Shown here: piece by piece, positions 243-61,080 of the stretch | How the letters are laid out: each line of letters begins with the position of its first letter | Numbering within the stretch: the first letter of the stretch is position 1 | Source: a virus | Taxonomy: Duplodnaviria > Caudoviricetes | Virus record (IMG/VR): IMGVR_UViG_3300031867_000002 | Coordinates: 96,001 to 160,000 of that record | DNA length: 64,000 nt | Strand: one strand, 5' to 3' | Program-made: the position numbers and the translations under genes | Notes under the pieces: model-generated | Seen by the model: the letters and a program-made list of their open reading frames with translations, nothing else | Databases searched by the model: none | Told to the model about the DNA's origin: nothing

Positions 243-277
243 ACAAATACCTCCTTTAATATTTTAATATAATGTTA

Positions 278-304
278 GAGAGACCCGAATTAATGGGTCT
301 CTCT
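278..304 (-). terminator. Intrinsic terminator-like hairpin
   Basis: AGAGACCC...GGGTCTCT inverted repeat directly after the 1334-aa ORF. Confidence 0.65.
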
Positions 305-308
305 TATA

Positions 309-3300
309 TTAACCATTGTGTTCGAGTTCACTTACTCTTCTTTCAAGTTGTTCAATTCTATATATTAATTCAGCAATACATGTTGGTGTAGGATAACTTG
401 GTGTATCAGAACCAGATGGTTTATATGCATTAACTTCTCTTTCAAAGAATTCTTTAGTACATAATAATCCATCATTATTGATATACATTCTTGAAGGATA
501 TACAGTTCCTCTTTCTAAAGTATAAGTAAATTTTTCTGGGTCAGTGCCGCCATTTCTTCTTTGAATAGAACTAAATCCTTCTGTTTCAAATACTATTACA
601 CCTCTATTATTTAAAATTCTTGTATTATTAGTTATACTAGTATTAGGATATCCATACCCATAATAAAAATTATATATATTGTGCTTACTATCATATTCAG
701 CATTATGGTCATGATAGTTTTTACTAGATTCTGGGAACATATTTGCATCATGTTTATTAGCGTCATCCTGAGTTATACTATCATTTATATCTACTTTACT
801 ATTTATATTTTGTCCAGAATCATCGAAATATTTATTTAAGTCTTGTTTAATATTTATAAGAGAGTCAGATAGTATGTCTATTGTCTTATTGTTATTAAGA
901 GCTAATAGCATTGTATTCCAATTAATCTTATCTACATCAATATCTGAAATATTACCATTTATAGACAATAGTACTGGATTTAAAGGTTCATTATCTGTTA
1001 TAGATACTCCATATACAGATTTATCTCCAGTCTTAGTTATTGTAATATTTATAGCATCATCTGATTTATATTTTTCTGTAATATCTTCATTTGCTGTAAT
1101 TCTTTCTGGATTATCTTTATCTGCTCTTATAGGTTTAACAAGGCTAAATCTATTATAAGAGAATATATTTTTCTTATCCATATCAGATTTTAAATACAAT
1201 GATGAATAAACTGTAACTTTGTTATTATTTTCGTCTATAAATTTACCATCACTGTTAAATCCTTTAATCTTCAGAATTTGTTCTTTAGTGTATAGAGTTC
1301 TGTTACATGATGTTGGTAAATAAGATTCATCACTATAGAAGTCTTTTCCTATATCTCTAGTTAGTAAGTAATGATAAAATTCATATATAGATTTATTTAC
1401 ATAATACTCATCTCTAATACCACAACCGTTTATATATTTGAATATCGCTGTATCAAAGCAATCTTTAACTTTTCTATTCTTTAACCATTTATTATAAGAA
1501 TCTACACTATAATCAAAGATTCCGTTTATCTTAGTATCTGATACATATGGTGCCATACAGTTCATTTCAACAGCATAATTATTAGAACCTATATATTCTC
1601 TAAGTTCTTTAATTTTATCTAAGTCTCTACTTACAGCACAATCTACTCTATAGTCTTCTTCAGCTAGATTTACTGTAGTAGAATTACCAAATGATGTGTC
1701 ATAACGAACATATTTAGTTTCATCAGTTACACCATTAGAACCTTCTGGATAATCTACAGAGAATGGATGGAATTTATATCCAACGACAACATCTTTTACA
1801 ATAGTCATCCATCCATTATCGGAACTTACTATGCTATTATATCGTGCTATAGCATCTGATTCAGAAGATGATGTTTGACTAGCATAATAATATAACCAAG
1901 CATTATTAAAGAACGTTTTATCATCGTTATTATTAATACCACTTAAGTCTAATAGCTTTACTTTGTCTGTGAAATAATCATATAGTGCAACAACATCATC
2001 GAATGCATAATCATCATATTTATAACAGTACTTTATTCTATACAGTACATTATCCTTAATGAAATAGTAATAATCTATTCCTATAGGACAAAGACTATTA
2101 AGTTTAAAATTACTTTTTGTTAATTTTGTAACAATAATATCATTGTTATTTTTTTGTATAGTATAGAGTGGACATTCTACACCATCTATTTCGATAAAAA
2201 ATTCATTATTTCTGTCTCCTATATGGTCGCCAGCATAATGAATCTTTCTAGTTATCAATAAAGCTTGTGTAGCTAATTCTACATTGTTATAATCTGGAGC
2301 AGTTTCACCTTTCTTTACATAAGGAGTATCTATTTTAGCCACTCTAATTTTATTAACTAGTGTACATAGATATTTTACATTGTTGGTATTATCTATTATT
2401 AATATACCATTATCTCCACTAATAATAGATTGGCTAGGTCTACATTTATAATCATAGTTTACTCCATCTATATTACATTTTAATTTAGTCTCATCGTTAA
2501 ATTTAAAAGATGTGTTCATAGTAAATGGAGAATTATTTCTACCACAGTATCTATTAAGTAATTCATATGCTAGAATTCTATTTTCTGCATTATCCCAGTT
2601 ATATATACTTATTCTTTTTCTAAATTTATACTTGGTTCTATTAAAAGAATCATGTGATTCTTCTGGGTTAAATCCAGTAAATGTATGAATATTTGAAGAG
2701 TCTATAAACTGTCCATCAGATTCATCAAATAATACATGCTCAAATAATTCTGGATACATTGCAACTACACATACTGGGCTATTATCAAAAGGAGCGTCAT
2801 GGTTATTATTAAATCTAAATGTAACACTTCCAGACTTTGTATTATTAGCTTGTGCTAAAGCATTTCTTTTCATGGTAGCAATATAGTTAGAGTCGTTATT
2901 ACCAAAGAATTCTATAAAACGTTTTATATATTTTAAATTATTGTCAATACTAAAATAATCTTTAGGAGTAAAATTAGAATTTACGTATTGTGAGTTAGAT
3001 ACTATAATAGTCTTTACAACTCTATCTGATGCTGTATTGCTATAAGAAGACCAAGTACTATTATTAGAATCAAATATTTCATTACTTGCATCTTGAATTA
3101 TTAAATGTGCATAATCTCCAATATAGTTATAAACATGAAATCCACGTATAGTATCATCAGTCCAATAAGTTCCTTGCATATTATCAAATACAGTTCCATT
3201 AGCTTTAATGCTAACCCATTCACCATTACATTTTATAGCATTATTATCTAGATATGGCAATACCATAAATTTTTTATTTTCTATATCAAAAGGTATAGCA

Positions 3301-4313
3301 TTTAAGTGCTGATATTCTACATCATCAAAACTGTCGCTATTTAATCCTTTTGCAGTTATTACATACCCATATTTTTGTCTATGCTCTTCATCCAATGTGC
3401 TATAAAATCTGTTTATATAATTCTTTCCAAAAATCGGATTATTTATAAATTCATCATATGATAATACAAATTCGTTTATAAATTTTTCATTAGTAGAGCC
3501 TTCTATTGAACTATAAGTTTGAAAGCTATCTATTGTATCTATGCCTTTATATACATTAAAGCAGTTAGTATGAGGAAATGTAAAGTTTATAATAGCATTA
3601 TTAAGGCTATTTATATCTTCATTATACACATTAGCAACTGGAGTCATATATGTTGCTTGTGGGTCTTTTATGACAGGAATTTCATATACTACATTATCTA
3701 CATCATTACGCATTAAAGAGTATCTTCTATCAGTAACATCTTTATCCTCATTATCTGCTTCAAATTCTACGGCTTCTGCAAATACATCTAAATCAAACGG
3801 GTCTGTAATATTTCCACCTCCATAAATTGTATCTCCAGTAATATCAAATAGTTTAACATTACCATCTGCTCCTGGTCCTACAATAAAGTTTTTAAAGTTA
3901 CTTTCTGAACAAAGATGAATACTAGCATTATCAAAATCGATAATTACCATTACATAATCGCCCTCATTAAATACATCTTTAGTTGCAGGATACGCTTTCT
4001 TTTCACCAATATTATTATCAATTCTTCTTCCAGCAAAGTCATATACATTTTCAAACTTTACTCTAAGAATTACTTCGTCTTCTGTATTTATAAGTAACCA
4101 ATCATCTCCAGCAAAATTATCACTGCCGTTATGTTTATAAAATGGATATGGTACAGCTGCTGTAAATAATTTAATTATCTTACCAGACAGTTTAACTGGA
4201 TAACTTGTATCCATTTTAAGCATATTAACCATTTCAAATATATTATTATTTATAAAATGTTTTCCATAGATATGCTTTAGGTCCATACGTCTATTTAAAA
4301 AGTTAGTCGACAT
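309..4313 (-). CDS. Large hypothetical protein (1334 aa), probably virion structural
   Basis: Long ORF with SD AGGAGG and a late-type promoter at 4339-4351; N/D/Y-rich; ends in a short coiled coil (IAELIYRIEQLERRVSELE). Confidence 0.6.
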   Translation of the reverse strand: MSTNFLNRRMDLKHIYGKHFINNNIFEMVNMLKMDTSYPVKLSGKIIKLFTAAVPYPFYKHNGSDNFAGDDWLLINTEDEVILRVKFENVYDFAGRRIDNNIGEKKAYPATKDVFNEGDYVMVIIDFDNASIHLCSESNFKNFIVGPGADGNVKLFDITGDTIYGGGNITDPFDLDVFAEAVEFEADNEDKDVTDRRYSLMRNDVDNVVYEIPVIKDPQATYMTPVANVYNEDINSLNNAIINFTFPHTNCFNVYKGIDTIDSFQTYSSIEGSTNEKFINEFVLSYDEFINNPIFGKNYINRFYSTLDEEHRQKYGYVITAKGLNSDSFDDVEYQHLNAIPFDIENKKFMVLPYLDNNAIKCNGEWVSIKANGTVFDNMQGTYWTDDTIRGFHVYNYIGDYAHLIIQDASNEIFDSNNSTWSSYSNTASDRVVKTIIVSNSQYVNSNFTPKDYFSIDNNLKYIKRFIEFFGNNDSNYIATMKRNALAQANNTKSGSVTFRFNNNHDAPFDNSPVCVVAMYPELFEHVLFDESDGQFIDSSNIHTFTGFNPEESHDSFNRTKYKFRKRISIYNWDNAENRILAYELLNRYCGRNNSPFTMNTSFKFNDETKLKCNIDGVNYDYKCRPSQSIISGDNGILIIDNTNNVKYLCTLVNKIRVAKIDTPYVKKGETAPDYNNVELATQALLITRKIHYAGDHIGDRNNEFFIEIDGVECPLYTIQKNNNDIIVTKLTKSNFKLNSLCPIGIDYYYFIKDNVLYRIKYCYKYDDYAFDDVVALYDYFTDKVKLLDLSGINNNDDKTFFNNAWLYYYASQTSSSESDAIARYNSIVSSDNGWMTIVKDVVVGYKFHPFSVDYPEGSNGVTDETKYVRYDTSFGNSTTVNLAEEDYRVDCAVSRDLDKIKELREYIGSNNYAVEMNCMAPYVSDTKINGIFDYSVDSYNKWLKNRKVKDCFDTAIFKYINGCGIRDEYYVNKSIYEFYHYLLTRDIGKDFYSDESYLPTSCNRTLYTKEQILKIKGFNSDGKFIDENNNKVTVYSSLYLKSDMDKKNIFSYNRFSLVKPIRADKDNPERITANEDITEKYKSDDAINITITKTGDKSVYGVSITDNEPLNPVLLSINGNISDIDVDKINWNTMLLALNNNKTIDILSDSLINIKQDLNKYFDDSGQNINSKVDINDSITQDDANKHDANMFPESSKNYHDHNAEYDSKHNIYNFYYGYGYPNTSITNNTRILNNRGVIVFETEGFSSIQRRNGGTDPEKFTYTLERGTVYPSRMYINNDGLLCTKEFFEREVNAYKPSGSDTPSYPTPTCIAELIYRIEQLERRVSELEHNG

Positions 4314-4370
4314 ACTGTTTCCTCCTTTACAAGAATCTTTATATTAAAGTTCCACTATTACAATAAAAAA

Positions 4371-6265: not shown

Positions 6266-6345
6266 AATAAATTCCTCCAATATATAATATTATAGGTAAG
6301 TTGAGACAAGTGTAGTTTTTGCCCCAACTTACCTATTGGGTTCAA

Positions 6346-10289: not shown

Positions 10290-10403
10290 TATCCGATTCC
10301 TTCTTTCATTTTAATTTTGAGAGTAAGCGTCTCTCTATTACATAAATAATATATGATTCAACTTACTATTAAATTATTGTACAGAAGGGAGTAGATTCTT
10401 AAT

Positions 10404-11093
10404 ATGTTGAACCCAGAATTATTGCTTAACGATATTACTGTATTTGATAAGGGTAAATCAGCTAGATATAGATATCAAGGCAGAGGAGTTCCTAGTGTAA
10501 CAGAATTATTATCTTTCATTGATACAGAAGGTCTTGTTGGGTGGGCAAATAGAATCGGTAGACAAGGTATTGATAATAGAGATGTAGTAAAGAAAGCTGC
10601 AGATTTTGGCACTATGGTGCATGAGTCTATAGAGATGTATTTAAAAAAGAAACCAGTATTAAACGATAACGTATGTTTAGAAGCGTTTAAGAAATGGTGG
10701 GATGGAGTAAATAGTTGTCATAGAGTTAGAGTATTGGGACAAGAAGAACCTATGATAGGTGAGTTCTTTGCTGGCACATATGACTTATTAATCAGTATAG
10801 ATGACAAACCATATCTCATAGATTTCAAGACATCTAATCGTGTAGGATATAAGTACTTTATGCAATTAGCTGCATATAGATATCTTATATATACAAAAAA
10901 GAATATCAATCTTGAAGGGTGTCTAATTCTACAGTTTGATAAAGAAGAGGTAAACTTTAGAGAGTATTCTTTAACATTTAGTGACCCAGCAGATTATGAA
11001 TTCATTGAGAATTGTTATAGAGCTTTTATGGGACTTGTATATACGTATTATAACGCTAAGTTATGCCAACGTCAATTTGGAATTATATTTTAA
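10404..11093 (+). CDS. PD-(D/E)XK exonuclease (RecB/Cas4-like phage nuclease)
   Basis: PSVT..L, GT.VH..IE, AGTYDLL, IDFKTS, QLAAY motifs. Confidence 0.85.
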   Translation: MLNPELLLNDITVFDKGKSARYRYQGRGVPSVTELLSFIDTEGLVGWANRIGRQGIDNRDVVKKAADFGTMVHESIEMYLKKKPVLNDNVCLEAFKKWWDGVNSCHRVRVLGQEEPMIGEFFAGTYDLLISIDDKPYLIDFKTSNRVGYKYFMQLAAYRYLIYTKKNINLEGCLILQFDKEEVNFREYSLTFSDPADYEFIENCYRAFMGLVYTYYNAKLCQRQFGIIF

Positions 11094-11132: not shown

Positions 11133-12392
11133 TTATGGAGTTGTAGTTTCTTCTGGAATTTCATACACTCTATTCTCTACAGTATATTCTTTCTTAATAT
11201 CAGTTTCAGATTCTGTGTGAGTTTGTTTATGAGTAATATTACCATCGGCATCATATCTTTCTTCTACACGAGTTCTAAGTTCTTCTCCAGTCTCTTCATC
11301 TGTAGAATAAGTATAGATAATCTTATCAATCATAACAAATTCTCCATCAATTAGTTGTTTAGTAATAGCAGACTCACGTTTATTATCTTCGTTGTAAGTA
11401 TATGTAGTAACCTTAGAATTGTCTTCTGCAAATGTAAGAAGATTATTGTTTTCGTCATATACTTCTTTAATATACTTACTCTTCTGATGTCCATGTTTAT
11501 CTGTAGCATAAGTATGTTTTTCTACTGTTTTCTCACCAGTCTCACTATCAGTACTTCTAGAGATACGAGTCATTATCTCTACATCATCATCTTTTAATAC
11601 CATTTTAATTACCTCACTTTCTAGGTCATACCAATATTGTTCTCTAACAAAACCATTCTTGATAACTCTAGAAATTTTAAAATCTGCATTAGGGTCATAG
11701 ACTTTAGTAGTTTTAGCAAATACTTTCTTGTCGTTAAGATGTCTGAATATCTCTGTAGTAGAAAGTGTTTTACCATTATGGTCTTTATCTCTTTCTACGA
11801 AGCATTCAAAGTTTTTAGCATGTTCTACATAATGAACTAGTTCTCCATACTCATTATAAGTAGCAGAATATATTCTAGCAACAGATTTGCTTTTAATAGT
11901 TTTAGTCCATATGATAGTAACATTACCGTCTTGATTGTATTCTGTAGTTTGAATTGAGTCGGTAGATTTTATAGTCTTAGTTTTAATATTACCATTACCC
12001 CAATACCAAAATTGTTCTCTATTATACATGATACCAGTGCGAGTGTAATATTCACGTTTAACAACTCTACCCTTATCATCATAATAAGTCGTATTAGTAG
12101 TCTTTTCGATATCCGTAGATTGACCATTCTTAGACATTGTTTTTTCTACATTACAAGAAATTATATTACCATCACTATCTTTAGTATAATTATATTTATA
12201 CTTAATAACAAATTCATCACTAACAACAATCTTACCTGTTGGATATTCTCCATCTTTATCTTTAAATACTACTACAAGGTCTAAATCTGTTTTAGATAAT
12301 AGGTCGTCTTTTCTTGTTTCATCATATACTAATGTAGTAGTATGATGTTTAACTCTAAGTAAATTATCTTCTTTAATAATATTTGTAGCCAT
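11133..12392 (-). CDS. YD/RHS-like beta-hairpin repeat protein
   Basis: Repeated YDxxG/YNxxG motifs (YYDDKGR, EYNQDGN, TYNEYGE, VYDENNN, RYDADGN). Confidence 0.55.
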   Translation of the reverse strand: MATNIIKEDNLLRVKHHTTTLVYDETRKDDLLSKTDLDLVVVFKDKDGEYPTGKIVVSDEFVIKYKYNYTKDSDGNIISCNVEKTMSKNGQSTDIEKTTNTTYYDDKGRVVKREYYTRTGIMYNREQFWYWGNGNIKTKTIKSTDSIQTTEYNQDGNVTIIWTKTIKSKSVARIYSATYNEYGELVHYVEHAKNFECFVERDKDHNGKTLSTTEIFRHLNDKKVFAKTTKVYDPNADFKISRVIKNGFVREQYWYDLESEVIKMVLKDDDVEIMTRISRSTDSETGEKTVEKHTYATDKHGHQKSKYIKEVYDENNNLLTFAEDNSKVTTYTYNEDNKRESAITKQLIDGEFVMIDKIIYTYSTDEETGEELRTRVEERYDADGNITHKQTHTESETDIKKEYTVENRVYEIPEETTTP

Positions 12393-12436
12393 ACTAACTA
12401 CCTCCTTTACATATTATAATAAAGTTCAACACTAAA

Positions 12437-12475: not shown

Positions 12476-13015
12476 TTAGATTTCTACCTCTACAACTTTG
12501 CCTTTTCTAATAGATTCTCTCACATCAATGATACGCTGATTAGTAGAACCTCTCCACTTACAGTCAAGCGAGGCTTTATCTTTTTCAAACTTACCATCGA
12601 TAAGATAGTCAATATTGTAAAGAAGTCTCATATAAGACATAATTCCTTCATCAATACCTTTCTTAATCTGTTCATAGGTATAACCTGTATAGCAGATAAT
12701 ATTAAACTCTCTTCCAACTTGTGCAATAGAGTTATTGAAATATTTATTGATAGCAATAGCTAAATCTGCTAATGCGTCAGCCTGAAGGAAAGGTTCACCA
12801 CCAGAAAAAGTGATACCGTCATACATAGGATTACTGATAAACTCTTTAAGAATATTATCTGTATCCATAGTAATACCACCCTGAGGGTCATGTGTCTGAG
12901 GATTATGACAACCCTCACACTTATGATAGCATCCTTGAACAAATACTACATATCTAAGTCCAGGACCGTCAACAATAGAATCTTTTGTGATTCCAGCTAC
13001 TCTAAGATTACTCAT
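12476..13015 (-). CDS. nrdG: Anaerobic ribonucleotide reductase activating protein (radical SAM)
   Basis: DSIVDGPGLR, CxxxCxxC (CYHKCEGC), TFSGGEPF, DGKF, WRGSTNQR. Confidence 0.95.
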   Translation of the reverse strand: MSNLRVAGITKDSIVDGPGLRYVVFVQGCYHKCEGCHNPQTHDPQGGITMDTDNILKEFISNPMYDGITFSGGEPFLQADALADLAIAINKYFNNSIAQVGREFNIICYTGYTYEQIKKGIDEGIMSYMRLLYNIDYLIDGKFEKDKASLDCKWRGSTNQRIIDVRESIRKGKVVEVEI

Positions 13016-13883: not shown

Positions 13884-13949
13884 AAATCATCGTTCCTTTC
13901 GATATAAAAATTTCTGTAGATTCTTCTCTACACAAAAATAATATATAAT

Positions 13950-14375: not shown

Positions 14376-14415
14376 ATAGACACCTCCTATGATATATTAT
14401 AAGGAAGTTAAAGCG

Positions 14416-16424: not shown

Positions 16425-16522
16425 AACAGTCCTCCTTTCATAGTATTATATCAATGTTCTGGAAATCAAATATAATGAGATTGTAAAAGTTTAATATTTT
16501 GTATATATATAATATAAGTGAA

Positions 16523-19177: not shown

Positions 19178-19211
19178 ATCGGTTCCTCCTTTAAATATAT
19201 AATAGTATTAC

Positions 19212-19988
19212 TTATTTGTTTTTGGGTTTCTTTTTTACTACCTTTAACTTCAGGGTAGCGTAGTCATTATCTTCTTTACTATATGTGTCGATGATTGCAG
19301 TTTTAGAGTATCCATTTTCCCACAACCATTTACCTAAATCTAAATCACAATATAGCATCTTATCATCAAAGAAGACATTGAATTTATAGTTTAATAACAT
19401 AATTCGTTTTTCAATAAATTTCTGTTTAAACTTATATACATCATATTTACTTTTGAAAATAAATTCAGTATAATCGTTTACATCTATATCAGATAACTCA
19501 TTGACTATCTTTACGTTAACACTTTTATGATATCGTCTTACAATATCTTCTTCTAGTTTATTCCCGCATACTATAGTAACATGTGTATTATCCATAGCAG
19601 CATATACAGAGATTAGAAAAAATATTCCAGTGATTGCCATATACTTACTTTCTTTAAGTAAGTCACCATATCTAGTAGACATGATTTCTTTATAAATAGA
19701 ATCTGCAATTTCTTTATCTTTAAAGCATATTGTTAATGGATTAGGGTCTTCTCTATTGATTAGAAGAAATTTAACTTCTTTTGTTGACATATTCATAACG
19801 TCTTGGTTAATGAATTTAGGATTGTTGTATTCTGCTTGTACCATTCTTAATACAGCAAAATCTAAATCTACTATAGTATTAAACATAACTAAATAATTAT
19901 GATAACCTGCTGCAGCTTTATCTACTTCAATCTTTTTCTTTGTACCATCTGGGTTAACTTCTTCTACATTAATAGAATCAATTGCCAT
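19212..19988 (-). CDS. Hypothetical protein (258 aa)
   Basis: ORF in operon, SD GAGGAGG. Confidence 0.6.
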   Translation of the reverse strand: MAIDSINVEEVNPDGTKKKIEVDKAAAGYHNYLVMFNTIVDLDFAVLRMVQAEYNNPKFINQDVMNMSTKEVKFLLINREDPNPLTICFKDKEIADSIYKEIMSTRYGDLLKESKYMAITGIFFLISVYAAMDNTHVTIVCGNKLEEDIVRRYHKSVNVKIVNELSDIDVNDYTEFIFKSKYDVYKFKQKFIEKRIMLLNYKFNVFFDDKMLYCDLDLGKWLWENGYSKTAIIDTYSKEDNDYATLKLKVVKKKPKNK

Positions 19989-21702: not shown

Positions 21703-21794
21703 AATACTTACCTCCTGGCTTTTAGCCATAATAATATTTTACTTATTTGTTTATGGTATGGTAATTTATAACTCTAATCGTACCTGATTAGGTC

Positions 21795-21807
21795 AACTTA
21801 TTAATAA
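21795..21807 (+). promoter_or_regulatory. Late-type phage promoter AACW-N6-TAA (example, upstream of terminase)
   Basis: AACT-TATTAA-TAA; 23 copies found in the window, listed in findings. Confidence 0.75.
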
Positions 21808-25090: not shown

Positions 25091-25138
25091 GATAGATTCC
25101 TCCTTATAAAAATTTACTATTTTGTTTCTGAATGTGTA

Positions 25139-25525: not shown

Positions 25526-25558
25526 ATAATTACCTCCTTTGGTATTTTAATAAAATGT

Positions 25559-25583
25559 TGAGGGGTGATTATCTCACCCCTCA
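25559..25583 (-). terminator. Terminator-like hairpin
   Basis: TGAGGGGTGA-ttatc-TCACCCCTCA. Confidence 0.65.
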
Positions 25584-27405: not shown

Positions 27406-28238
27406 TAATATTCAGCTCCTTCTTCCTCTTCATTATATTCTTCATCATTAGTATCTTGTTGTTCTGGAACTTGTTCTTGTTGAGAAACCATTATATCCGA
27501 TTCTAATAGCTTTTGAATTGCAATTCTAATCTCTGTTAGAATAGTTGGATTATTTACTACTTGACAAAATTCATCTTTAAAGATATTTCCAAAAGGTTGA
27601 ATGTTTTGATATAAGAAGTCACACATATCTCTATTATAATTAAATGACAAGAAAGTATAAAGGTCTATATCAAATCCAGACATATAATATACCACTTCTT
27701 TAATACGTGCAATTATAATAGATACTACTTGGTCATTATATGCTTTTCGTATATAATTAGAAGTACTGTCTTTAATCTTCTTATATCTATCTAATCCCAT
27801 AGCATCATAGAATTGATTTCTATTAGTATAGATATAACGAGCAAAAAAATTAATAATGTTTCTAGCATAGCCAGAAACAAAAAGGTCATATAAATTATAA
27901 GCTAGAATATAACAGTCTGGTTCATTACCAACATACTGTACATTAAAAGAAGAACAAATTTTATTGATTATATTAAGATAAGTTTCATATCTAATAGACA
28001 TAATATTATCTGCATCTGATGGGAATCTACCAAGCATATCTTTAAAGTTAATTTCATAAGAGTTAACAATATTTGGATTGGATAAAGTAGGATTATAAGC
28101 AAATCTATTCTTAATAGAGTTATCAATAACATCCATCACATATGAGTTACTAAATTGAGAGAGTAGACTAGCTACTTCTCCTTCTGCGACCATATTATAA
28201 ATCTGGTCATTTCTATACAAGTCAATCATGAGAGACAC
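27405..28238 (-). CDS. Hypothetical protein (277 aa; ATG at 28229 may be the true start)
   Basis: SD AAGGAG, late-type promoter 28256-28268. Confidence 0.6.
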   Translation of the reverse strand: MSLMIDLYRNDQIYNMVAEGEVASLLSQFSNSYVMDVIDNSIKNRFAYNPTLSNPNIVNSYEINFKDMLGRFPSDADNIMSIRYETYLNIINKICSSFNVQYVGNEPDCYILAYNLYDLFVSGYARNIINFFARYIYTNRNQFYDAMGLDRYKKIKDSTSNYIRKAYNDQVVSIIIARIKEVVYYMSGFDIDLYTFLSFNYNRDMCDFLYQNIQPFGNIFKDEFCQVVNNPTILTEIRIAIQKLLESDIMVSQQEQVPEQQDTNDEEYNEEEEGAEY

Positions 28239-28290
28239 ACTCCTTTATATAAATATTACTAAATTGTTAAATTATGTGTTGAGTACAAAA

Positions 28291-29512: not shown

Positions 29513-29637
29513 AATTATACCTCATAGGTACTGCTCTTGGACCATAATAAATTTAATATAGTGCCTCTATGGGCTAGCGGTCCTCCACAGGATAGGGTTT
29601 ATGACTCCACTATCACAATAATAATATATAATACAAA

Positions 29638-31030: not shown

Positions 31031-31067
31031 TGTAAAGACTCCTTTCAAATTATAAGATTTTATAAAA

Positions 31068-31095
31068 AGGTTGGAGACATGTTAGTCTCCAACCT
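31068..31095 (-). terminator. Intrinsic terminator
   Basis: AGGTTGGAGAC-atgtta-GTCTCCAACCT. Confidence 0.7.
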
Positions 31096-34317: not shown

Positions 34318-34330
34318 TTATATATGAGTT
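34318..34330 (-). promoter_or_regulatory. Late-type promoter inside the intron, upstream of the HNH gene
   Basis: AACT-CATATA-TAA about 25 nt upstream of the HNH ATG. Confidence 0.6.
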
Positions 34331-37247: not shown

Positions 37248-37346
37248 ATCAATGCTCCTTTGTCATGATAAAATCATGACTCCTTTCTTATTTGGTTTAC
37301 TTCAATGTTATCTATTCGTTAAAACAAAAAATAAGGAAAAATAAAT

Positions 37347-37841: not shown

Positions 37842-37887
37842 AATATCAACCACCTTTCTATAATTACTATAAAGTTGATATAAACAA

Positions 37888-37918
37888 AAAATAAGCCAGC
37901 GTTTAACTGGCTTATTTT
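37888..37918 (-). terminator. Intrinsic terminator
   Basis: AAAATAAGCCAG-cgtttaa-CTGGCTTATTTT. Confidence 0.75.
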
Positions 37919-37945
37919 TATATTGTGCTTATACAGCAGAATGAT

Positions 37946-38395: not shown

Positions 38396-38473
38396 TATAA
38401 AGACCTCCTAAAATAAAATATTTGTGATAGGAACTGGTCCTATCACAAATATAGTATACAATTAATAAACAAA

Positions 38474-39253: not shown

Positions 39254-39307
39254 ACCAATCTCCTCCTTTCTTATCTAAATGTTTTCGTATATAAAAAACA
39301 AGGCGGC

Positions 39308-42662: not shown

Positions 42663-42709
42663 GGAGTTAACCTCCTTTCATTATATTACTATTTTGTTTT
42701 TGTATTAAA

Positions 42710-43673: not shown

Positions 43674-43810
43674 AATAAGTACCTCCTATAATAAAAAATT
43701 TTATTGCGATAGATTATTTCTATCACAGATATAATATACAATCTAATATTTTGTTTTTACAAGTGTTAAAACTTAACTATAAAGATTTCTTTTAGAAAGG
43801 AACATTATAT

Positions 43811-44595: not shown

Positions 44596-44610
44596 TATAC
44601 TATTATTGTG
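44596..44610 (+). promoter_or_regulatory. Early-type phage promoter TATAYHAT-N4-GTR (example)
   Basis: TATACTAT-TATT-GTG; 12 copies found, listed in findings. Confidence 0.65.
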
Positions 44611-47270: not shown

Positions 47271-47547
47271 TAAAGATATCGATGTATATGTACAAGGTAA
47301 ATATATTGGTATGAGACTTGAAAGTATTCGTAAGTCTCGCCATATATCACAAAAACAAATGGTAGAACTTTCTGGATTAAATCAAGGAACAATATGTCAT
47401 ATAGAGCACGGTTATGGATGTAATCTTGATAGTTTAATCAAATATATAAATGTAATCGGATATGATATTGATTTTACTAAGAAAGTAGATGGTGATGACA
47501 ATGATTCAGAAGGAAGCAATAAAACAATATCTTCTACAAGTACTTGA
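47263..47547 (+). CDS. XRE/Cro-family HTH protein
   Basis: IGMRLESIRKSRHISQKQMVELSGLNQGTICHIEHG..CNLDSL; ATG 47263 after GGAG. Confidence 0.8.
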   Translation: MNNKDIDVYVQGKYIGMRLESIRKSRHISQKQMVELSGLNQGTICHIEHGYGCNLDSLIKYINVIGYDIDFTKKVDGDDNDSEGSNKTISSTST

Positions 47548-48523
47548 TAGACCGCAAATTGTTTCTGGGGGCAACGAAATTGCTTGCCCCTGCCCTTTTT
47601 GCGGAGAACAAAGACCTAAGTTATATATAGGTCCGTTTAATGACCCGAATAAGCCAATCAAGTATAATTGTTTCATCTGTAAAGTACACGGTTATTTAGA
47701 CCAAGACTTTTTAGATAGTATCGGAATAGCTAAACAGATTGACCCAGAAATATTGAAGTCTAATAAAGGTTCAGACTTTAAGATGGGCTACTCTGGAAAC
47801 AATTCATTTTATAACTTATTATGGGATAATGTTACTATAAATGAATTAACAGAGTATAAACTTAAGTACGTGAATGATAGATTAGGATTACACTTAACTT
47901 ATCAAGATTGTATACAGAATAAGATTATACTCAATATTCAAGACTTATTATCTTATAATGGTATTAAATACCTTACTAGACATCCAGATACTGTACAACA
48001 ATTAAACTATTACTTTATAGGATTCTTATCTAGAAGTAATGCTAGTTTGAATATGAGAAATATAATATCTGGTAGTTATGCAGAAAGTAAACTAGAAGAA
48101 TCTTTGTGGCAAAAGTATATCAATTATAAAGTATTCAAGAATACACCAGATAATGACTTCTATGTATTACCTTGCGATATAGATTTAAGTAGACCTATAA
48201 AGCTATATATAGCAGAAGGTCCATTTGATATATTGGGTATTAAATACAATCTTGTAAAGAGTATAGATAATTGTGTCTATGTTGCTGGTCGTGGTAAAGC
48301 ATATGAAAAAGCTTTATATTGGTTTATTCATACAGCTATGCCATTTAATATGGAAGTACACTTCTTTCCAGATGCAGATGTAAATGAGAAGATGATAACT
48401 AATATAACCAGAAATTATTCTGTATTTGGATATCAATTCTACTTGCATAGAAATAAGTATAAGAACGAAAAGGACTTTGGTGTACCAGAGTGGAGAATCA
48501 ATGATTTCTGTTATACAATATAA
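47489..48523 (+). CDS. DNA primase (Zn finger + TOPRIM); start may be 47501
   Basis: CPFC...CFIC Zn finger, YIAEGPFD, FPDAD, KDFG. Confidence 0.75.
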   Translation: MVMTMIQKEAIKQYLLQVLDRPQIVSGGNEIACPCPFCGEQRPKLYIGPFNDPNKPIKYNCFICKVHGYLDQDFLDSIGIAKQIDPEILKSNKGSDFKMGYSGNNSFYNLLWDNVTINELTEYKLKYVNDRLGLHLTYQDCIQNKIILNIQDLLSYNGIKYLTRHPDTVQQLNYYFIGFLSRSNASLNMRNIISGSYAESKLEESLWQKYINYKVFKNTPDNDFYVLPCDIDLSRPIKLYIAEGPFDILGIKYNLVKSIDNCVYVAGRGKAYEKALYWFIHTAMPFNMEVHFFPDADVNEKMITNITRNYSVFGYQFYLHRNKYKNEKDFGVPEWRINDFCYTI

Positions 48524-48550: not shown

Positions 48551-48597
48551 GTTTGTTGAACATTTCAATAATATATAACGTACAAGGAGGTATTTAG

Positions 48598-49788
48598 ATG
48601 GGTAAGTTTATTAATAAGTCTTATACTAAAGCTATTGACTCTCTTACTTCTGGTATGATACAGAAAGTAAAAACTGCCAATTATGTATTCAATAATAAGC
48701 CTCCTGTTATTTGTGATTGGTATAATATTGATAAAGATGCTACTACTTTTGATGAAGGCACTGGAGCAGAGTACTCGGCTATCGGTAAGAATAGTCCAAT
48801 TCGTTATAAGTTAATTAAAGACGCTATCTTTTATGGGCAAGGTATTCAAATTGAAATTGACTTAGAATATGATGAAGACGGTCTTACTACAGCTCCTCCA
48901 TCTGTTAGCGGTATTGTTTTACCTAATACTTGGATTCCATATTCTGGAGACCATTTCACTCTTAAACAGGCTGGAAAAGAATTTATATACAGAGTTAACT
49001 CTGTATCATATGACACTATAGACAATAACAATAACGTCTATAAGTTTGAAGCACAAGTTGACCAAACTGGAAAATCTTATATAGACAATCAAGTTACAGA
49101 AACTTATAGAATGATAATAAATAATGTAGGTACTAGTTATAAAGCTATAGTAAAAGAAACTATCTATGATTGTATTGATACATTAGATGAATTTCTATTA
49201 CAATTTAAGAATTATTATATAGCACTTTTCTATAATGATTGTGTACAGACATTTACTTATGTTGGTCCTTATGGAAATCTTTATGACCCGTATATGATTG
49301 AGTTCTTATCTAGAAATGATATTCTAGCTGGTTCTAATGAGTATATTTATGTAAACCATGAAGTACCAGTTTCAAGAACCTTCTCTATAGATTATAATAA
49401 CAGTTTATTTAGAGCTTTGGAAACTAAAACTATAGATAATTTCACTAATCAAAATTGTAATGCCGAACTTATACAAGACCAGTATTCATTATTCTCTACT
49501 GTAGCAGAAGATTACTATATGATTAAACATAAAGATTTTGGTTTATCATTATTTAATCCAGTAGATGCACAATTGATTAGTAATGTAAAATTTGGAGAAA
49601 AATTACTTCCAAATGACCCCAAAGCATATTATAATATTATAGTAGATTATTTTAATGATGTTAAATTAGATTCTTCTATTATTCCAATATTAGAAGCTAT
49701 TAATTTTACTCCAAGTGTTGATTTATTCTACGTAATACCTATGCTTATATTTGTTATCGAATATAGCATTAAAAAGCTCATGTCTTAA
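48598..49788 (+). CDS. Hypothetical protein, probably virion structural (396 aa)
   Basis: Late-type promoter 48559-48571, SD AAGGAGG. Confidence 0.55.
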   Translation: MGKFINKSYTKAIDSLTSGMIQKVKTANYVFNNKPPVICDWYNIDKDATTFDEGTGAEYSAIGKNSPIRYKLIKDAIFYGQGIQIEIDLEYDEDGLTTAPPSVSGIVLPNTWIPYSGDHFTLKQAGKEFIYRVNSVSYDTIDNNNNVYKFEAQVDQTGKSYIDNQVTETYRMIINNVGTSYKAIVKETIYDCIDTLDEFLLQFKNYYIALFYNDCVQTFTYVGPYGNLYDPYMIEFLSRNDILAGSNEYIYVNHEVPVSRTFSIDYNNSLFRALETKTIDNFTNQNCNAELIQDQYSLFSTVAEDYYMIKHKDFGLSLFNPVDAQLISNVKFGEKLLPNDPKAYYNIIVDYFNDVKLDSSIIPILEAINFTPSVDLFYVIPMLIFVIEYSIKKLMS

Positions 49789-49821
49789 CATACCAATAAT
49801 CTAGGAAAGGAGGACTTTTAT

Positions 49822-50307
49822 ATGTCTCAACCTGTTACACTTGATAGTCTTATGACTGATTTTGTATGTGATATGGTAGTAGCAGATGACGAATTATCTG
49901 ATTCTATCTTTACATGTGTAGATAATTTCATTGATGATTTATGTCTTAGAGTAATGGATGATGAGAATAATATCTTTGAAACAGATAGAGATGAGGGTGA
50001 TTTACCATTTAACTTCATTGTAGATAAAGTACTTGAACGAATTGACACAATTGAAGATATTGCAAATGATTCATATGGTGAAGTTCTTAAAAAACAACTT
50101 GGTCTTAAAGGTGATGATGAGCATCTTAATAATATGGACCCTGATTATTGTGAAGATGTAAACTTTGATGAACTTACTCCAGAAGATTTTCAATTATATA
50201 TTGCTGTTCCAAATATAGATGGAGAAGCAGATGAACAAGATGTAGATTGGACTACAGATGATGGAACAAATGTAGATTCAACTTACGATTCTATCTTCAA
50301 TGCTTAA
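49822..50307 (+). CDS. Highly acidic hypothetical protein
   Basis: Late-type promoter 49787-49799, SD AGGAGG. Confidence 0.6.
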   Translation: MSQPVTLDSLMTDFVCDMVVADDELSDSIFTCVDNFIDDLCLRVMDDENNIFETDRDEGDLPFNFIVDKVLERIDTIEDIANDSYGEVLKKQLGLKGDDEHLNNMDPDYCEDVNFDELTPEDFQLYIAVPNIDGEADEQDVDWTTDDGTNVDSTYDSIFNA

Positions 50308-51436: not shown

Positions 51437-53242
51437 TTAGAACTCTGGATTAACAAACTTAACACTTTTATCTGGATGAATAGTAAGTTCATATAAGCAA
51501 AGAATATTTTCTTTTGAAATACCTCTTGTTGTAAAACCATTCATACCAAGAACTTGAATTTTTGCATTAGCTTGTTTCTCACATTCCTGATTAGCCTCAA
51601 TTGTGTATACTGGTTTAACAATTGCTGTATCACCGTCATAGTCCATACCCATAGCTTCAATAAGACCATTACTAATAGAAAGTGTATCTTCGAATACTGG
51701 AGATGTATTAGAGTTAATGTCAGTATCCTCAATAACAGGATACCATTTATATAATTTCATATTGTCTTCAAAATCAGATTGAATAACCATAGGCGCAGTT
51801 TTAACAGTAGACTTTATTCTAACTTTTGTAGGATACTGATTAAGATAGGAGTCAATTGGGAAACGAGTAATAAGACACATCTTATCTGATGTAACATCAC
51901 ATGCTGCCATATAGAATAAATCACACCATGTAATACGTCTATTTACTTTAAGAGTTTCTGAATAATCTTGTTTAGTCTCTTTATATTCTTCTGAATTATT
52001 AAGTTTATATCCAGTAAATCCCATCCAAAAATTTAAATTTTTCAAATCTTTAATTTCTTTACCAGAAATAGCTCCAACTATTTGATGATTCTTAGCACGT
52101 CTAGCAAACTCTTCTTTATCTACTGGAATTTCAATAGGAATAAAACGGTTGCTATAACCATGAATAAAACGTTCAATCTGTTTATCTATTTCTACATCAG
52201 AGAATGCAATCTGATAATCTACTAATGGCACCATGATAGATTCTTTTTCATTTATCATAATAGGATACTCTAGTTTACCAGCAAATCTATTCTCAAAGAA
52301 ACGTCTTAACCAGAATGATACAAATGGTTTAAAGCAACATAGTGCTGCAGCTAGTGGTAATGCACAGTGGTCCATGTCAATCATTAAATCATCTATATCT
52401 TCTCCACTTACATCGGGAGCAGACATTACCAAACGTGCACTATAATCTACTGTTTTATACATAGTACCACGTTTAATAAGACCCATTTTACCAGGTAAGT
52501 TAGCAGGTGTTTCTTTACCATTTATAGTAGTACCATTACCAAACCAATCAAAAATTTGTACTAAAATATTTTGTACTCTTGCTTTAGTAACGTCACTTAA
52601 TGTAAGTCCATATCCAGATGTTTCTTTAAGTGCTTTTGTAGCCATTATCAAACTACTATAGAGTTTGTTTATTTCTCCTACTCCAATACCAGCATCTCTA
52701 GTATCTACGTCTCTATAGTATGCTGGTATTACTACCCACTTATCTACCCACATCTTATTTTTTACTTTCTCAATAAAGTCAATTCTCTTATTTCTAGATG
52801 CAGAATCATTCTTCTTAAACTTAATCTTAGAGAAGTTTTTCTTTAACCAATCTATCCCAGTATCGCCATCATCACTTGGAACTAAATCACCTTTATCATC
52901 AATAATAAAATAATCTGTACCATTTACAATATCTGCAATCTTACCATTGAGTTTTAATAGTGTCTTATATACTAGTGGTTGTATAAATTGAGAACCTAAA
53001 TCTATATATGCATATATACCAGCACGTTCATTTTTTGTAATGCCAAATATTTCATTGCTTAATAATCCATCTTCTGTTGGTGTAGGACCATTAAAAAATA
53101 CTGGATTACTTACCTCTTTTAACAAGTTATTCTTAATAAACTTATCTATGTCTAATAACTCTGTTTTAAAGTGTTCAGTTGCAGCTTCAGTAAAATAATC
53201 AGTTTCATCCTTAGCAATATTAACAGCTTCATCTATAAGCAT
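51437..53242 (-). CDS. Multisubunit RNA polymerase beta'-like subunit, N-terminal half with catalytic site (probably virion RNAP)
   Basis: GLLSNEIFG, VIPAYYR, GKMGLIK...KTVDYSARLVMS, RFP, MGMDYDGD; ATG 53242 after AGGAGG; late-type promoter 53271-53283. Confidence 0.9.
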   Translation of the reverse strand: MLIDEAVNIAKDETDYFTEAATEHFKTELLDIDKFIKNNLLKEVSNPVFFNGPTPTEDGLLSNEIFGITKNERAGIYAYIDLGSQFIQPLVYKTLLKLNGKIADIVNGTDYFIIDDKGDLVPSDDGDTGIDWLKKNFSKIKFKKNDSASRNKRIDFIEKVKNKMWVDKWVVIPAYYRDVDTRDAGIGVGEINKLYSSLIMATKALKETSGYGLTLSDVTKARVQNILVQIFDWFGNGTTINGKETPANLPGKMGLIKRGTMYKTVDYSARLVMSAPDVSGEDIDDLMIDMDHCALPLAAALCCFKPFVSFWLRRFFENRFAGKLEYPIMINEKESIMVPLVDYQIAFSDVEIDKQIERFIHGYSNRFIPIEIPVDKEEFARRAKNHQIVGAISGKEIKDLKNLNFWMGFTGYKLNNSEEYKETKQDYSETLKVNRRITWCDLFYMAACDVTSDKMCLITRFPIDSYLNQYPTKVRIKSTVKTAPMVIQSDFEDNMKLYKWYPVIEDTDINSNTSPVFEDTLSISNGLIEAMGMDYDGDTAIVKPVYTIEANQECEKQANAKIQVLGMNGFTTRGISKENILCLYELTIHPDKSVKFVNPEF

Positions 53243-53343
53243 TGTAATATACCTCCTTATTATCATATAATTATTATAAAGTTCCACCTATCCATTCTAA
53301 CAAAACATACATATAAAATTGATTATAAAGGAGGATATTCTAT

Positions 53344-53904
53344 ATGAAGAAGCCTGTTTATTACTATCAGAATGTACAGCATTTTGATGATTATAATTGT
53401 TGTCCTAGACCTTGTCCACCGCCTCATCCATGCCCTCCTCCTCACCATCATTGTCATCCACATTATCATGGCAAAGTTGGTATTGTAGGAAGAACAGTAT
53501 TATCTGTTCGCTATGTGGATTGTCATGGTCACGTACAGACATTTGATATTCATGAGAATGAAACTTATGAGATTAAAGCAGTTAGTCAGACTCGTGGAGT
53601 TTGTACTTTTGCTGCAAGAATCATTGATTTTGAATGCTCTAAGGGTATTGAAAAGCTCATTGATAAACCTCATATGATTGATGTAACTGCAATTATTGTA
53701 GATTACTCTGATGCATATGAAAGCAAGCTTCTTAGAATTGGTATTGAGAATATCATTTCTATTAAGCCAGTAAAGTGCTTTGATGGTATGATTCCTGATT
53801 TTGTACCTCAGTGTCCAGAACCAGTATCTCCACCTCATCATTGTGAATGTAGCCCATCTGGTTATGAAGAATATGTTATTAATGACCCGTTTGAGATGGG
53901 TTAA
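53344..53904 (+). CDS. Hypothetical protein with Pro/His/Cys-rich termini
   Basis: CCPRPCPPPHPCPPPHHHCHPH; core paralogous to 25139-25525; late-type promoter 53304-53316. Confidence 0.65.
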   Translation: MKKPVYYYQNVQHFDDYNCCPRPCPPPHPCPPPHHHCHPHYHGKVGIVGRTVLSVRYVDCHGHVQTFDIHENETYEIKAVSQTRGVCTFAARIIDFECSKGIEKLIDKPHMIDVTAIIVDYSDAYESKLLRIGIENIISIKPVKCFDGMIPDFVPQCPEPVSPPHHCECSPSGYEEYVINDPFEMG

Positions 53905-56828: not shown

Positions 56829-57152
56829 ATGTTATTAGAAAGTATTATTTCTAGAAATGTGTCATCTATTACTATACCTAATGGTGTAACTAGTATTGGC
56901 GATTATGCGTTTTTTTATTGTATGTCTCTTACATCTATTACTATACCTAGTAGTGTAACTAGTATTGGTAGCGGTGCATTTACTGGTTGTACATCTCTTG
57001 CATCTATTACTATACCTAGTAGTGTAACTAGTATCGGTGAAGGTGCATTTGCTAGTAATTCTATTACATCTATTACAATAAATAAACCAGAAGGAAGTAT
57101 ATCTGGCGCTCCTTGGGGAGCAACAAACGCTACAGTAACTTGGACTGGATAA
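56829..57152 (+). CDS. Mini BspA-LRR protein duplicating the C-terminus of the upstream gene
   Basis: Three repeats plus [30 protein letters not shown]; own SD AAGGAG. Confidence 0.8.
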
Positions 57153-59782: not shown

Positions 59783-59783
59783 A

Positions 59784-60092
59784 TTATTCACCTCCTTTCA
59801 AAGCGGAAATTTTCATTATCCACTTATTTCCTTTCTTATTATATATATTTACATATACAACACCATTCTTCTCTAAATTTTCTCTCCCCTTTATTTCATT
59901 TTTATTTTCTCCGAAGAAAATAAGAATTGGTAAATTTGGATTTTCCGTGTAACCCATTACACAAAATCCCAATTCTTCCTTCTCCCCCCTTTCTAATGAT
60001 TCTTTAAACATAGCAGAATTAAACCTGCCAAGTTTAATAATTTTTTCATTGTTGTTCCCTGTTTTGATTTGATAAATTCTGCCATCTAACAT
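59784..60092 (-). CDS. Hypothetical protein (102 aa)
   Basis: SD GGAGG; early-type promoter 60155-60162. Confidence 0.55.
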   Translation of the reverse strand: MLDGRIYQIKTGNNNEKIIKLGRFNSAMFKESLERGEKEELGFCVMGYTENPNLPILIFFGENKNEIKGRENLEKNGVVYVNIYNKKGNKWIMKISALKGGE

Positions 60093-60249
60093 GATATTCC
60101 TCCGAGAGGTCGTAGAGTCTTTATAACCGTTTTACAGTAACCTCTTACACATTAATAATATATAAAAAAGAATGATAAGTTTAACAACCAACAATTTTTA
60201 TACCTTTAACATCCAAGTAATAAATTGATATAGATAGGAGGCGATATAC

Positions 60250-60972
60250 ATGGATACACCTAGCTTCATTAAAGTTAAAGGTGACTCTTATGTATTTGCT
60301 AATGATGGTTGCTTTAAATTCTATGTTCCTGAGAAGTTCTTTTCTAATAAACTTGCAGAGTTTATTGGTGAATGTATTGCTCTATTTGGAGTAATACCTT
60401 ATGCTCTCTTTGATAAGAATGATAAACCCATCGGAAAGCTGAGAAACTTTAAATTCCCTAATACATTTCTCACTAAACCAGATGAGATTGAAATTGCTAA
60501 GGGAATTGTATTAACTAAGAATAACAAACCTGAAGATTATCGTATTCTGAAATATTATAAAGAAGGAGTTATTGTTGTAAACTATAATATCTCTCAAGAT
60601 GCAGAGAATATTCAACATTGGTATTCTGCTCTTGATACTGGTGCTTTACCTAATAATATTCATTACGATGAACTTCAGAACTACTTCTTAAGAAATGCTC
60701 AAATTACTGGTAACGGATATGGCGTTTCATTACAACTTATCGGAGTTGTAATCGGAGAATTATGTCGCTGTAGTAAAGATATTGATACTCCATATAGACT
60801 AGGAAAAGACGAAGACCCAAACGCATATCAATGGATTGCTATCAAAGATGTACCTAGAGGAACATCGCCGTTTACAGCTATTCAAGCTGAACAATGGGAT
60901 TTAGCTGTTATTTCATCAATTACTAATGATAATAATAAAGACTCTCCTCTTGAGAAGATTATGATGGATTGA
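60250..60972 (+). CDS. Hypothetical protein, probably virion-associated (240 aa)
   Basis: Late-type promoter 60208-60220, SD AGGAGG, upstream of the sheath gene. Confidence 0.55.
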   Translation: MDTPSFIKVKGDSYVFANDGCFKFYVPEKFFSNKLAEFIGECIALFGVIPYALFDKNDKPIGKLRNFKFPNTFLTKPDEIEIAKGIVLTKNNKPEDYRILKYYKEGVIVVNYNISQDAENIQHWYSALDTGALPNNIHYDELQNYFLRNAQITGNGYGVSLQLIGVVIGELCRCSKDIDTPYRLGKDEDPNAYQWIAIKDVPRGTSPFTAIQAEQWDLAVISSITNDNNKDSPLEKIMMD

Positions 60973-61080
60973 GAGTCGCAGATTTTTAACATAAAGATAA
61001 ATGGTCTAGTAGCCTCACATACTACTGGCTTTACACACACATTAATATATATAAAATTTTTTGATAAAGGAGGATAAAAC

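Follow-up and report, generated by a model that had tools for sequence, protein, structure and literature searches.

The DNA described here is a stretch of 64,000 nucleotides (nt), hereafter the window, which spans bases 96001-160000 of the IMG/VR virus record IMGVR_UViG_3300031867_000002 (Duplodnaviria; Caudoviricetes). It carries genes for an endolysin, a large terminase, a baseplate wedge protein, a probable tail sheath protein, a virion RNA polymerase subunit, a DNA primase and a homologue of gp226 of Bacillus phage AR9, and many of its genes are preceded by a short bipartite element, AAC-N7-TAA (in its stricter form AACW-N6-TAA, where W is A or T), which is very likely a promoter for a phage polymerase. 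The source contig, from an uncultivated jumbo phage, is 224,632 base pairs long with a guanine-plus-cytosine (GC) content of 31.7%; in IMG/VR it is listed as viral and as bearing direct terminal repeats, and its CheckV completeness is 100%. Genes were predicted with our own simple caller of open reading frames (ORFs) and Shine-Dalgarno sequences, which gave 193 genes and 93% coding DNA; note that individual motif-to-start distances may be off by one start codon because of this caller. A megablast search with 24 kb of the genome matched no cultured phage, and 54 of the 193 predicted proteins match phage AR9 by tblastn and are arranged in syntenic blocks.

The preliminary description of the window had listed 23 copies of the 13-mer near Shine-Dalgarno sequences, among them copies before the endolysin, terminase, baseplate, probable sheath and RNA polymerase genes. 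All 23 were found on the strands listed, and each of these genes has its site (Table 1). Twenty-two of them lie 30-62 nt 5' of a same-strand start codon with a AAAGGAGG-type Shine-Dalgarno sequence, and the 23rd (60988) lies at 93 nt. Further sites occur at 6290(-), 19208(-), 27448(-), 31060(-), 37308(-) and 57126(+), with C or G at the W position in 31060(-), 37308(-) and 57126(+), bringing the credible sites in the window to about 29 (the 23 listed plus about six more). Counted over the whole window, AACW-N6-TAA was not enriched (51 copies vs. 55.6 ± 6.8 expected from dinucleotide shuffles). On the other hand, 82 copies lay wholly inside the intergenic DNA of the genome (15.5 kb), where 14.1 ± 4.0 were expected (z=17.4). 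The whole-window count looked like chance because the intergenic excess was offset by avoidance within genes, where sense copies numbered 72 vs. about 118 and antisense copies 33 vs. about 87, and where the 7-nt spacing was the rarest of 14 tested on both strands. The enrichment proposed as a check in the preliminary description was thus borne out for intergenic DNA only, and its simplest refutation test, counted over the whole window, would have misled.

Genome-wide, 72 of 166 copies sit 13-80 nt 5' of a same-strand start codon, with a mode at 35-45 nt, and the motif marks about 40% of the phage's genes. When all trinucleotide-gap-trinucleotide dyads were scanned de novo, AAC-N7-TAA ranked first (p=5e-29): it occurred in 75 of 193 upstream regions, whereas coding and antisense controls had it in 5 of 296 and 12 of 193 cases, respectively. 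Both the 7-nt spacer and every one of the six fixed bases proved obligatory (69/193 vs. 3/444), and neither single-base variants nor other spacings were enriched (4-13 for other spacings vs. 69). Among 72 sites, position -8, directly after AAC, held A 43 times and T 29 times, and a few further sites have C or G there.

Genes that have sizeable upstream gaps but lack the AAC motif share a second element, tGTATA(T/C)TAT-N5-TG; of its 30 copies, 26 are intergenic, and it stands 51-116 nt ahead of start codons. The AR9 record has 35 annotated early promoters that read AAATATATATTAT-N5-TG, so that the core TATATTAT-N5-TG is common to both phages, and this core has also been reported for MarsHill-like phages (10.1101/2020.12.14.422802). 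The two motifs head different sets of genes. Specifically, units with the AAC motif hold every recognisable structural or lysis gene (19 of 19) and the full set of four virion-polymerase genes, whereas units with the early-type motif only include those of non-virion β-C, gp226, ligase, helicase and primase; the non-virion β'-C gene has both motifs upstream. The AAC motif also precedes the genes for gyrase A, DnaB, SbcCD and UvsX, both DNA-polymerase genes and two non-virion polymerase genes, and it is therefore better called a middle-and-late than a purely late promoter. The AR9-type late transcription assumed in the preliminary description accordingly stood as regards the geometry, the full AR9-type machinery and the early core, while "late" proved too narrow a word.

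Two observations on the early-type motif may be added. On the minus strand, the late promoter at window 48559-48575 also matches TATATTAT-N5-TG, with no gene downstream in that direction; the two AT-rich motifs probably overlap there by coincidence. Furthermore, downstream of three early promoters there is a leader of about 60-80 nt, almost the same in each case (TAGTAGAGGTCAGACAATGCT..CTGAAC..CACGAGGATATG.AGAATA) before unrelated short genes (genome ~64770-64850, 94160-94240 and 208205-208285, all on the plus strand and outside the window); it may be a conserved structured 5' leader.

Two sets of RNA polymerase genes were found by tblastn, namely homologues of the four non-virion core subunits of AR9 (gp270, gp154, gp105 and gp089; E=1e-27 to 1e-82) and of the four virion polymerase pieces (gp189, gp264, gp145 and gp078). 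The virion β'-N gene lies in the window, and AAC-N7-TAA is its only motif. By sequence and by its predicted structure, the 526-residue product encoded in the window is a member of the gp226 family, the promoter-specificity subunit of the non-virion RNA polymerase. It matches AR9 gp226 in BLASTP (E=3e-16 over 451 residues) and belongs with phrog_25005. Its AlphaFold2 model (mean predicted local distance difference test score, 81.7) has AR9 gp226 as the top Foldseek match in the PDB (7s01_A, E=1.9e-15; also 7um0_A), and the C-terminal domain aligns to 7um1_A with a template-modelling (TM) score of 0.73. A phmmer search of the PDB sequences gave no match to the protein, although BLASTP and Foldseek found gp226. 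The next Foldseek match was phiKZ gp68 (8que_B, E=2.5e-6), which the sequence search with the homologue missed. A tblastn search of cultured phages hit gp226-type genes only and placed the family in just 13 records, all AR9/PBS1-like, BpSp, phiR1-37 or Staphylococcus S6-like, and in metagenomes it forms 358 clusters. Sequence homology, fold and the accompanying four split subunits are thus those of the gp226 family, and Val206 and the aromatic residue at 210 are absent: in the 2.1bis helix, I249-L250-W251-K252-I253 aligns with AR9 V206-I207-W208-T209-Y210. The β-N pocket (AR9 gp105 R363, K375 and N382) was also compared, and the pairwise alignment, which gives N, K and a gap, was too uncertain to use.

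The preliminary description had further suggested that the genome might be uracil-substituted. In AR9, Val206 of gp226 clashes with the methyl group of thymine, the V206G variant accepts T, and Val is absolutely conserved in close homologues (PMC9209446). The enzymes that make deoxyuridine (dU)-containing DNA were defined in 2025 as a PF00383-family deoxycytidine triphosphate (dCTP) deaminase, as in PBS1, DSS3_VP1 and phiR1-37, and a second enzyme that is either a thymidine monophosphate (dTMP) phosphatase (PF06941 or PF12917) or a thymidine triphosphate (dTTP) pyrophosphatase (PF01725) (PMC12697855). PBS1 and AR9 also encode the uracil-DNA glycosylase inhibitor Ugi (PF18880), and AR9 g221 matches PF00383. 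In the complete genome of the phage studied here, no PF00383-type deaminase (Dcd) was matched; no deoxythymidine (dT) hydrolase (Dtm PF06941, PF12917 or Dtt PF01725) was matched at E<=0.1, though an unrelated hydrolase may be present; and Ugi was absent at E<=1, which is weak evidence because such small inhibitors are diverse. Counterparts of AR9 g104, g151 and g221 were not found by tblastn. The genome likewise yielded no deoxyuridine triphosphatase (dUTPase; PF00692), ThyA, thymidylate kinase or deoxycytidine monophosphate deaminase. Hence, of the genes that the preliminary description had named for a search of the rest of the genome, a dCTP deaminase was present and dUTPase was lacking, as it had foreseen, while the glycosylase inhibitor and the dTTP hydrolase did not turn up.

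What the genome does encode is a thymidylate synthase ThyX (genome 10644-11807(-), outside the window), which scores 118 bits on Pfam and 98.6 bits on TIGR02170, passing the equivalog cut-off. Its flavin adenine dinucleotide (FAD)-binding RHR, S-x-R-Y loop, AR..LP arginine and LR-DSHAQ-EI all align with those of Thermotoga maritima ThyX. A dCTP deaminase is encoded at genome 6107-6658(-) (PF22769, 126.8 bits; TIGR02274, 107.8 bits against a cut-off of 92.8). Its closest solved relatives include Methanocaldococcus jannaschii 1ogh (E ~1e-16) and, at a similar level, Mycobacterium tuberculosis 2qxx, which their depositors named "dCTP deaminase, dUMP-forming" or "bifunctional deaminase/diphosphatase" (dUMP, deoxyuridine monophosphate), and the monofunctional Escherichia coli dCTP deaminase is a far weaker match (5e-8). 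From their sequences we read the two enzymes as a dCTP to dUMP to dTMP route fit for a thymine genome of 68% A+T. Because the phage would supply its own dTMP in this way, its genome is most likely thymine-containing, so that the suggestion of uracil substitution found no support. AR9, BpSp, phiR1-37 and Machias were found to be without ThyX, ThyA and a PF22769 protein.

A scan of IMG/VR with an alignment of the gp226 family gave 80 loci, many of them on contigs of 200-340 kb. AAC-N7-TAA recurs before genes throughout these relatives, and it was the top strand-specific dyad in four of four divergence groups, which reach down to 33-40% gp226 identity and take in a lineage with 41% GC. The position equivalent to Val206 has 11 states across the clade, Gly included, vs. 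an invariant Val in the four cultured phages, where the pattern V-(I/M)-W-x-(Y/F) is retained; no member of the clade has an aromatic residue at position 210, and the Trp corresponding to AR9 Trp208 is invariant. ThyX is encoded by 28 of the 41 large relatives (371-494 residues, vs. 387 in the phage studied here) and ThyA by 11 others, giving 39 of 41 with either enzyme, with the caveat that the ThyA homologues could be hydroxymethylases. Strong PF22769 matches are confined to relatives that also have a thymidylate synthase. The two relatives without ThyX and ThyA, L033 (IMGVR_UViG_3300029305_004606) and L035 (IMGVR_UViG_3300028048_001169), both carry a PF00383 deaminase like AR9 and still have AAC-N7-TAA before genes, and the gp226 of L033 keeps the AR9-like V-I-W. 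They are candidates for independent or transitional uracil-DNA members of the clade.

We read AAC(W)-N6-TAA as the promoter of the phage's own AR9-type non-virion polymerase, probably on thymine DNA, and give this reading a probability of roughly 0.78. Homology and gene logic make it likely that the gp226 enzyme specifically is the reader. In such a programme, the injected virion polymerase would read the early motif and switch on the non-virion polymerase genes; the enzyme formed would consist of four split β/β' subunits and the gp226-family specificity subunit. From the AAC motif it would drive middle and late genes, that is, all those for structure, lysis and the virion polymerase together with many for replication. 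If AR9 is taken as the model, AAC would occupy -11 to -9 and T -1, the first A of TAA would be the start site, and the predicted leaders would be about 28 nt long. The dTMP from the phage's own route would give a thymine genome, unlike that of AR9, so that the template element recognised by the gp226 homologue, 3'-TTG-5', would contain T. The data themselves show the statistics, positions and conservation of the motif, the gene homologies and the set of genes for nucleotide metabolism; the identity of the polymerase that binds the motif, the start site, the template-strand reading and the base composition are inferences from these.

Several points weigh against this reading. The motif is not purely late, standing as it does before replication and two non-virion polymerase genes, and its assignment to the non-virion and not the virion polymerase is drawn from homology and gene logic. 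ThyX is atypical, with about 150 extra residues between its N- and C-terminal domain parts, a loop shortened by one residue, and Ile where RHRxxS has its first Ser; moreover, the presence of a thymidylate synthase is only a proxy for thymine DNA, as base composition is unreadable from sequence. Ile249 is β-branched like AR9 Val206 and, by the AR9 structure, could still clash with the thymine methyl group. The lack of a canonical dUTPase and the presence of a dCTP deaminase were both foretold for a uracil phage. Finally, the gp226 and β-N alignments, at about 22% identity, are locally uncertain.

The occurrence of the motif before early-type functions, namely the replication genes and the two non-virion polymerase genes, would also suit a phage promoter that is read by some other enzyme, be it an alternative form of the non-virion polymerase, as has been proposed for phiKZ middle promoters (PMC7598289), the virion polymerase or an undetected phage factor. 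We consider this improbable, because the clade keeps the gp226 family together with the exact AR9 geometry, AR9 virion-polymerase promoters already have a counterpart in another conserved motif, and all virion-packaged proteins depend on the AAC motif. Quite improbable, too, is the same AR9-type promoter on a uracil-substituted genome with a need for template-strand deoxyuridines, which the AR9 promoter requires at -11 and -10. The motif geometry is identical to that of AR9, and the gp226 family is otherwise found only in demonstrated or presumed dU phages (PMC9209446); the dUTPase, dCTP deaminase and Ile249 points just mentioned also speak for it. However, it is opposed by a ThyX with catalytic motifs that co-occurs with the dCTP deaminase across relatives, by the closeness of that deaminase to dUMP-forming enzymes, by the absence of all the experimentally defined dU-DNA enzymes and of Ugi (PMC12697855), by the unconstrained Val206 position and the loss of Tyr210 in the clade, and by the four cultured gp226-clade phages, which lack a thymidylate synthase unlike the phage studied here.

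The sequence after TAA is AT-rich, and 4-5 of 6 matches to TTGACA are in slight excess upstream (23 vs. about 11, the control being mostly coding DNA), which would be expected of a promoter of the host sigma-A type, or of a phage sigma factor, with a -10 element overlapping TAA. This is highly improbable, as there is no conserved upstream column or -35 region, only 30 of 76 sites have T where -7 would fall, which equals the background, a required AAC at a constant 7-nt distance is not a feature of sigma-70 promoters, and no sigma-70 region 2 gene was found in the genome, which itself encodes two complete polymerases. The remaining alternative can be judged from the 23 genuine divergent intergenic regions: an exact copy of one or the other motif is present in 41 of their 46 directions and the other five have one-base variants of the early motif, so that a motif stands in each direction as expected of promoters and not of RNA-processing sites. 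The chance that AAC-N7-TAA is an RNA-level signal (a processing site or leader element) is close to negligible, in spite of its constant distance to the ribosome-binding site and the many sites that come after terminator-like hairpins (a T-run within 25 nt upstream in 37 of 76), since divergent regions have no upstream transcript, the antisense strand of genes avoids the motif and nothing is conserved in structure or sequence around the two blocks.

Table 1. Predicted promoters and selected genes in the window (positions in window numbering; promoter assignments are predictions).
Feature	Position	Strand	Remarks
AAC-N7-TAA promoter	264..276	-	34 nt before start of amidase/endolysin gene (AR9 g195 homologue)
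AAC-N7-TAA promoter	4339..4351	-	before 1334-residue ORF 309-4313
AAC-N7-TAA promoter	6290..6302	-	not in preliminary list; 37 nt before start at 6265
AAC-N7-TAA promoter	10360..10372	+	before ORF 10404-11093
AAC-N7-TAA promoter	12414..12426	-	before ORF 11133-12392
AAC-N7-TAA promoter	14397..14409	-	before ORF 13950-14375; hairpin precedes promoter
AAC-N7-TAA promoter	16446..16458	-	before AR9 g233-like endonuclease gene 14964-16424
AAC-N7-TAA promoter	19208..19220	-	not in preliminary list; before GroEL-like gene 17483-19177
AAC-N7-TAA promoter	21739..21751	-	minus arm of divergent pair
AAC-N7-TAA promoter	21795..21807	+	before large terminase gene 21832-24177
AAC-N7-TAA promoter	25114..25126	-	before ORF 24836-25090
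AAC-N7-TAA promoter	25547..25559	-	before ORF 25139-25525; hairpin precedes promoter
AAC-N7-TAA site, weaker candidate	27448..27460	-	within 3' end of upstream gene; 55 nt before start at 27405
AAC-N7-TAA promoter	28256..28268	-	before ORF 27405-28229
AAC-N7-TAA promoter, C at -8	31060..31072	-	before ORF 29678-31030
AAC-N7-TAA promoter	34318..34330	-	before HNH endonuclease gene 33660-34292
AAC-N7-TAA promoter	37297..37309	-	before ORF 36702-37247; second overlapping copy 37308-37320
AAC-N7-TAA promoter	37864..37876	-	before ORF 37404-37841
AAC-N7-TAA promoter	39271..39283	-	before virion protein gene (AR9 g112 homologue) 38474-39253
AAC-N7-TAA promoter	42686..42698	-	before baseplate wedge gene (AR9 g232 homologue) 42228-42662
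AAC-N7-TAA promoter	43770..43782	+	before AR9 g227 homologue 43811-44590
AAC-N7-TAA promoter	48559..48571	+	before virion protein gene (AR9 g165 homologue) 48598-49788
AAC-N7-TAA promoter	49787..49799	+	before ORF 49822-50307
AAC-N7-TAA promoter	53271..53283	-	before virion RNA polymerase β'-N gene
AAC-N7-TAA promoter	53304..53316	+	plus arm of divergent region shared with 53271..53283(-); before ORF 53344-53904
AAC-N7-TAA site, G at -8	57126..57138	+	43 nt before start at 57169
AAC-N7-TAA promoter	60208..60220	+	before virion protein gene (AR9 g125 homologue) 60250-60972
AAC-N7-TAA promoter	60988..61000	+	93 nt before probable tail sheath gene (start 61081); unusually long leader
Early-type promoter TATACTAT-N5-TG	44596..44610	+	51 nt before gp226-homologue gene
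Early-type promoter TATATTAT-N5-TG	43724..43738	-	before ORF 42750-43673
Early-type promoter	13931..13945	-	before ORF 13008-13883
Early-type promoter	29614..29628	-	before ORF 28337-29512
Early-type promoter	38444..38458	-	before ORF 37946-38395
Early-type promoter	60148..60162	-	before ORF 59784-60092
gp226 homologue gene, 526 residues	44647..46227	+	BLASTP, phrog_25005, Foldseek
Virion RNA polymerase β'-N gene (AR9 g145 homologue)	51437..53242	-	phrog_2986; tblastn E=7e-51
DNA primase gene (AR9 g225 homologue)	47501..48523	+	near gp226 homologue, as in AR9

Among the neighbouring genes, the HNH homing endonuclease, a homologue of AR9 g271, is free-standing with its own AAC-N7-TAA promoter, whereas the AR9 copy lies inside the non-virion β'-N gene. 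The gene starting at 61081 is a probable tail sheath gene by weak similarity and synteny, and its putative product gave no match in PHROGs. Elsewhere in the genome, a 5647-residue ORF (187376-204319(+)) that weakly resembles the AR9 tape measure protein is preceded, at 36 nt, by an AAC-N7-TAA promoter of its own. A 431-residue protein encoded beside the UvsX homologue (36997-38292(-)) matches the tubulin/FtsZ GTPase domain weakly and below threshold (PF00091, E=3.4e-4); an AR9-related phage may here encode a PhuZ-like tubulin. The window has no tRNA genes; three lie outside it in an early-gene region (Leu-TAG, Leu-TAA and Glu-CTC; genome 15892-16615(+)).

To our knowledge, no multisubunit RNA polymerase other than that of AR9 is known to recognise its promoter on the template strand, and the uracil requirement of this enzyme has been interpreted as a means of telling phage from host DNA. 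What is new here is an AR9-code promoter that is unusually sharp, conserved in a clade and probably read on thymine DNA. A wider reading, to which we give about even odds, is that a large uncultivated AR9-related clade, with >100 contigs in IMG/VR and 358 protein clusters, applies the template-strand code of AR9 to thymine DNA, with natural gp226 variants at the Val206 site, including Gly as in V206G, reading 3'-TTG-5', and that uracil dependence is a specialisation of a few lineages. If true, template-strand reading and uracil dependence would be separable, and many natural thymine-tolerant versions of gp226 would be available for comparison with the single engineered V206G mutant. In addition, AAC-N7-TAA and TATATTAT-N5-TG let transcription units and temporal classes be annotated from sequence in hundreds of uncultivated jumbo phages, which, as far as we know, has so far been impossible for the late genes of AR9, phiKZ and Staphylococcus jumbo phages. 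A simple genomic screen for uracil-DNA candidates also follows, in which thymidylate synthase is set against a PF00383 deaminase and the dT-hydrolase set.

Compared with known systems, the motif is closest to the AR9 late promoter, 5'-A(-11)ACA-N6-T(-1)A/G(+1), whose template strand is read by the gp226 holoenzyme (PMC7598289, PMC9209446). The two share the AAC block, a six-base gap after the fourth base, T followed by a purine, and the lack of a -35 element, together with a homologous five-subunit non-virion enzyme and similar distances to start codons (medians of 42 nt in AR9 and 38 nt here). They differ in that the start block here is strictly TAA, the form taken by 43 of the 52 AACA-N6-TR sites close to start codons (22 of 81 in AR9), and the fourth base is A or T instead of a fixed A; note that the AR9 enzyme has almost no U/T preference at -8 (PMC9209446). 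The signal is also far sharper and emerges from a de novo scan: when AR9 was put through the same pipeline, 113 intergenic copies of AACA-N6-T[AG] were counted vs. 63.9 expected (z=6.5, against 17.4 here), and de novo discovery of late motifs has failed for AR9-like phages (PMC7598289; 10.1101/2020.12.14.422802). Two further differences are that Val206 and Tyr210 of gp226 are here both replaced by Ile and that the genome probably contains T and not U. The early-type motif resembles the virion-polymerase promoters of AR9 and MarsHill-like phages in its core and in its place before short early and non-virion polymerase genes, and differs in its upstream flank (tGTATA vs. AAATATA) and in a downstream block that is usually GTG. 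The dU phages, i.e., PBS1/AR9, phiR1-37 and S6/MarsHill-like phages, share with this phage the gp226 family, the two-polymerase strategy and many syntenic core genes; they have a PF00383-type dCTP deaminase and a dTMP/dTTP hydrolase, with Ugi in PBS1/AR9, and lack thymidylate synthase (PMC12697855), whereas the phage described here has the opposite set. With phiKZ, whose gp68 belongs to the same structural family as the gp226 homologue by Foldseek, it would share thymine DNA, which is favoured here, but the phiKZ late promoter, T-3ATG+1, is a start-site element only, without a -10-like AAC block.

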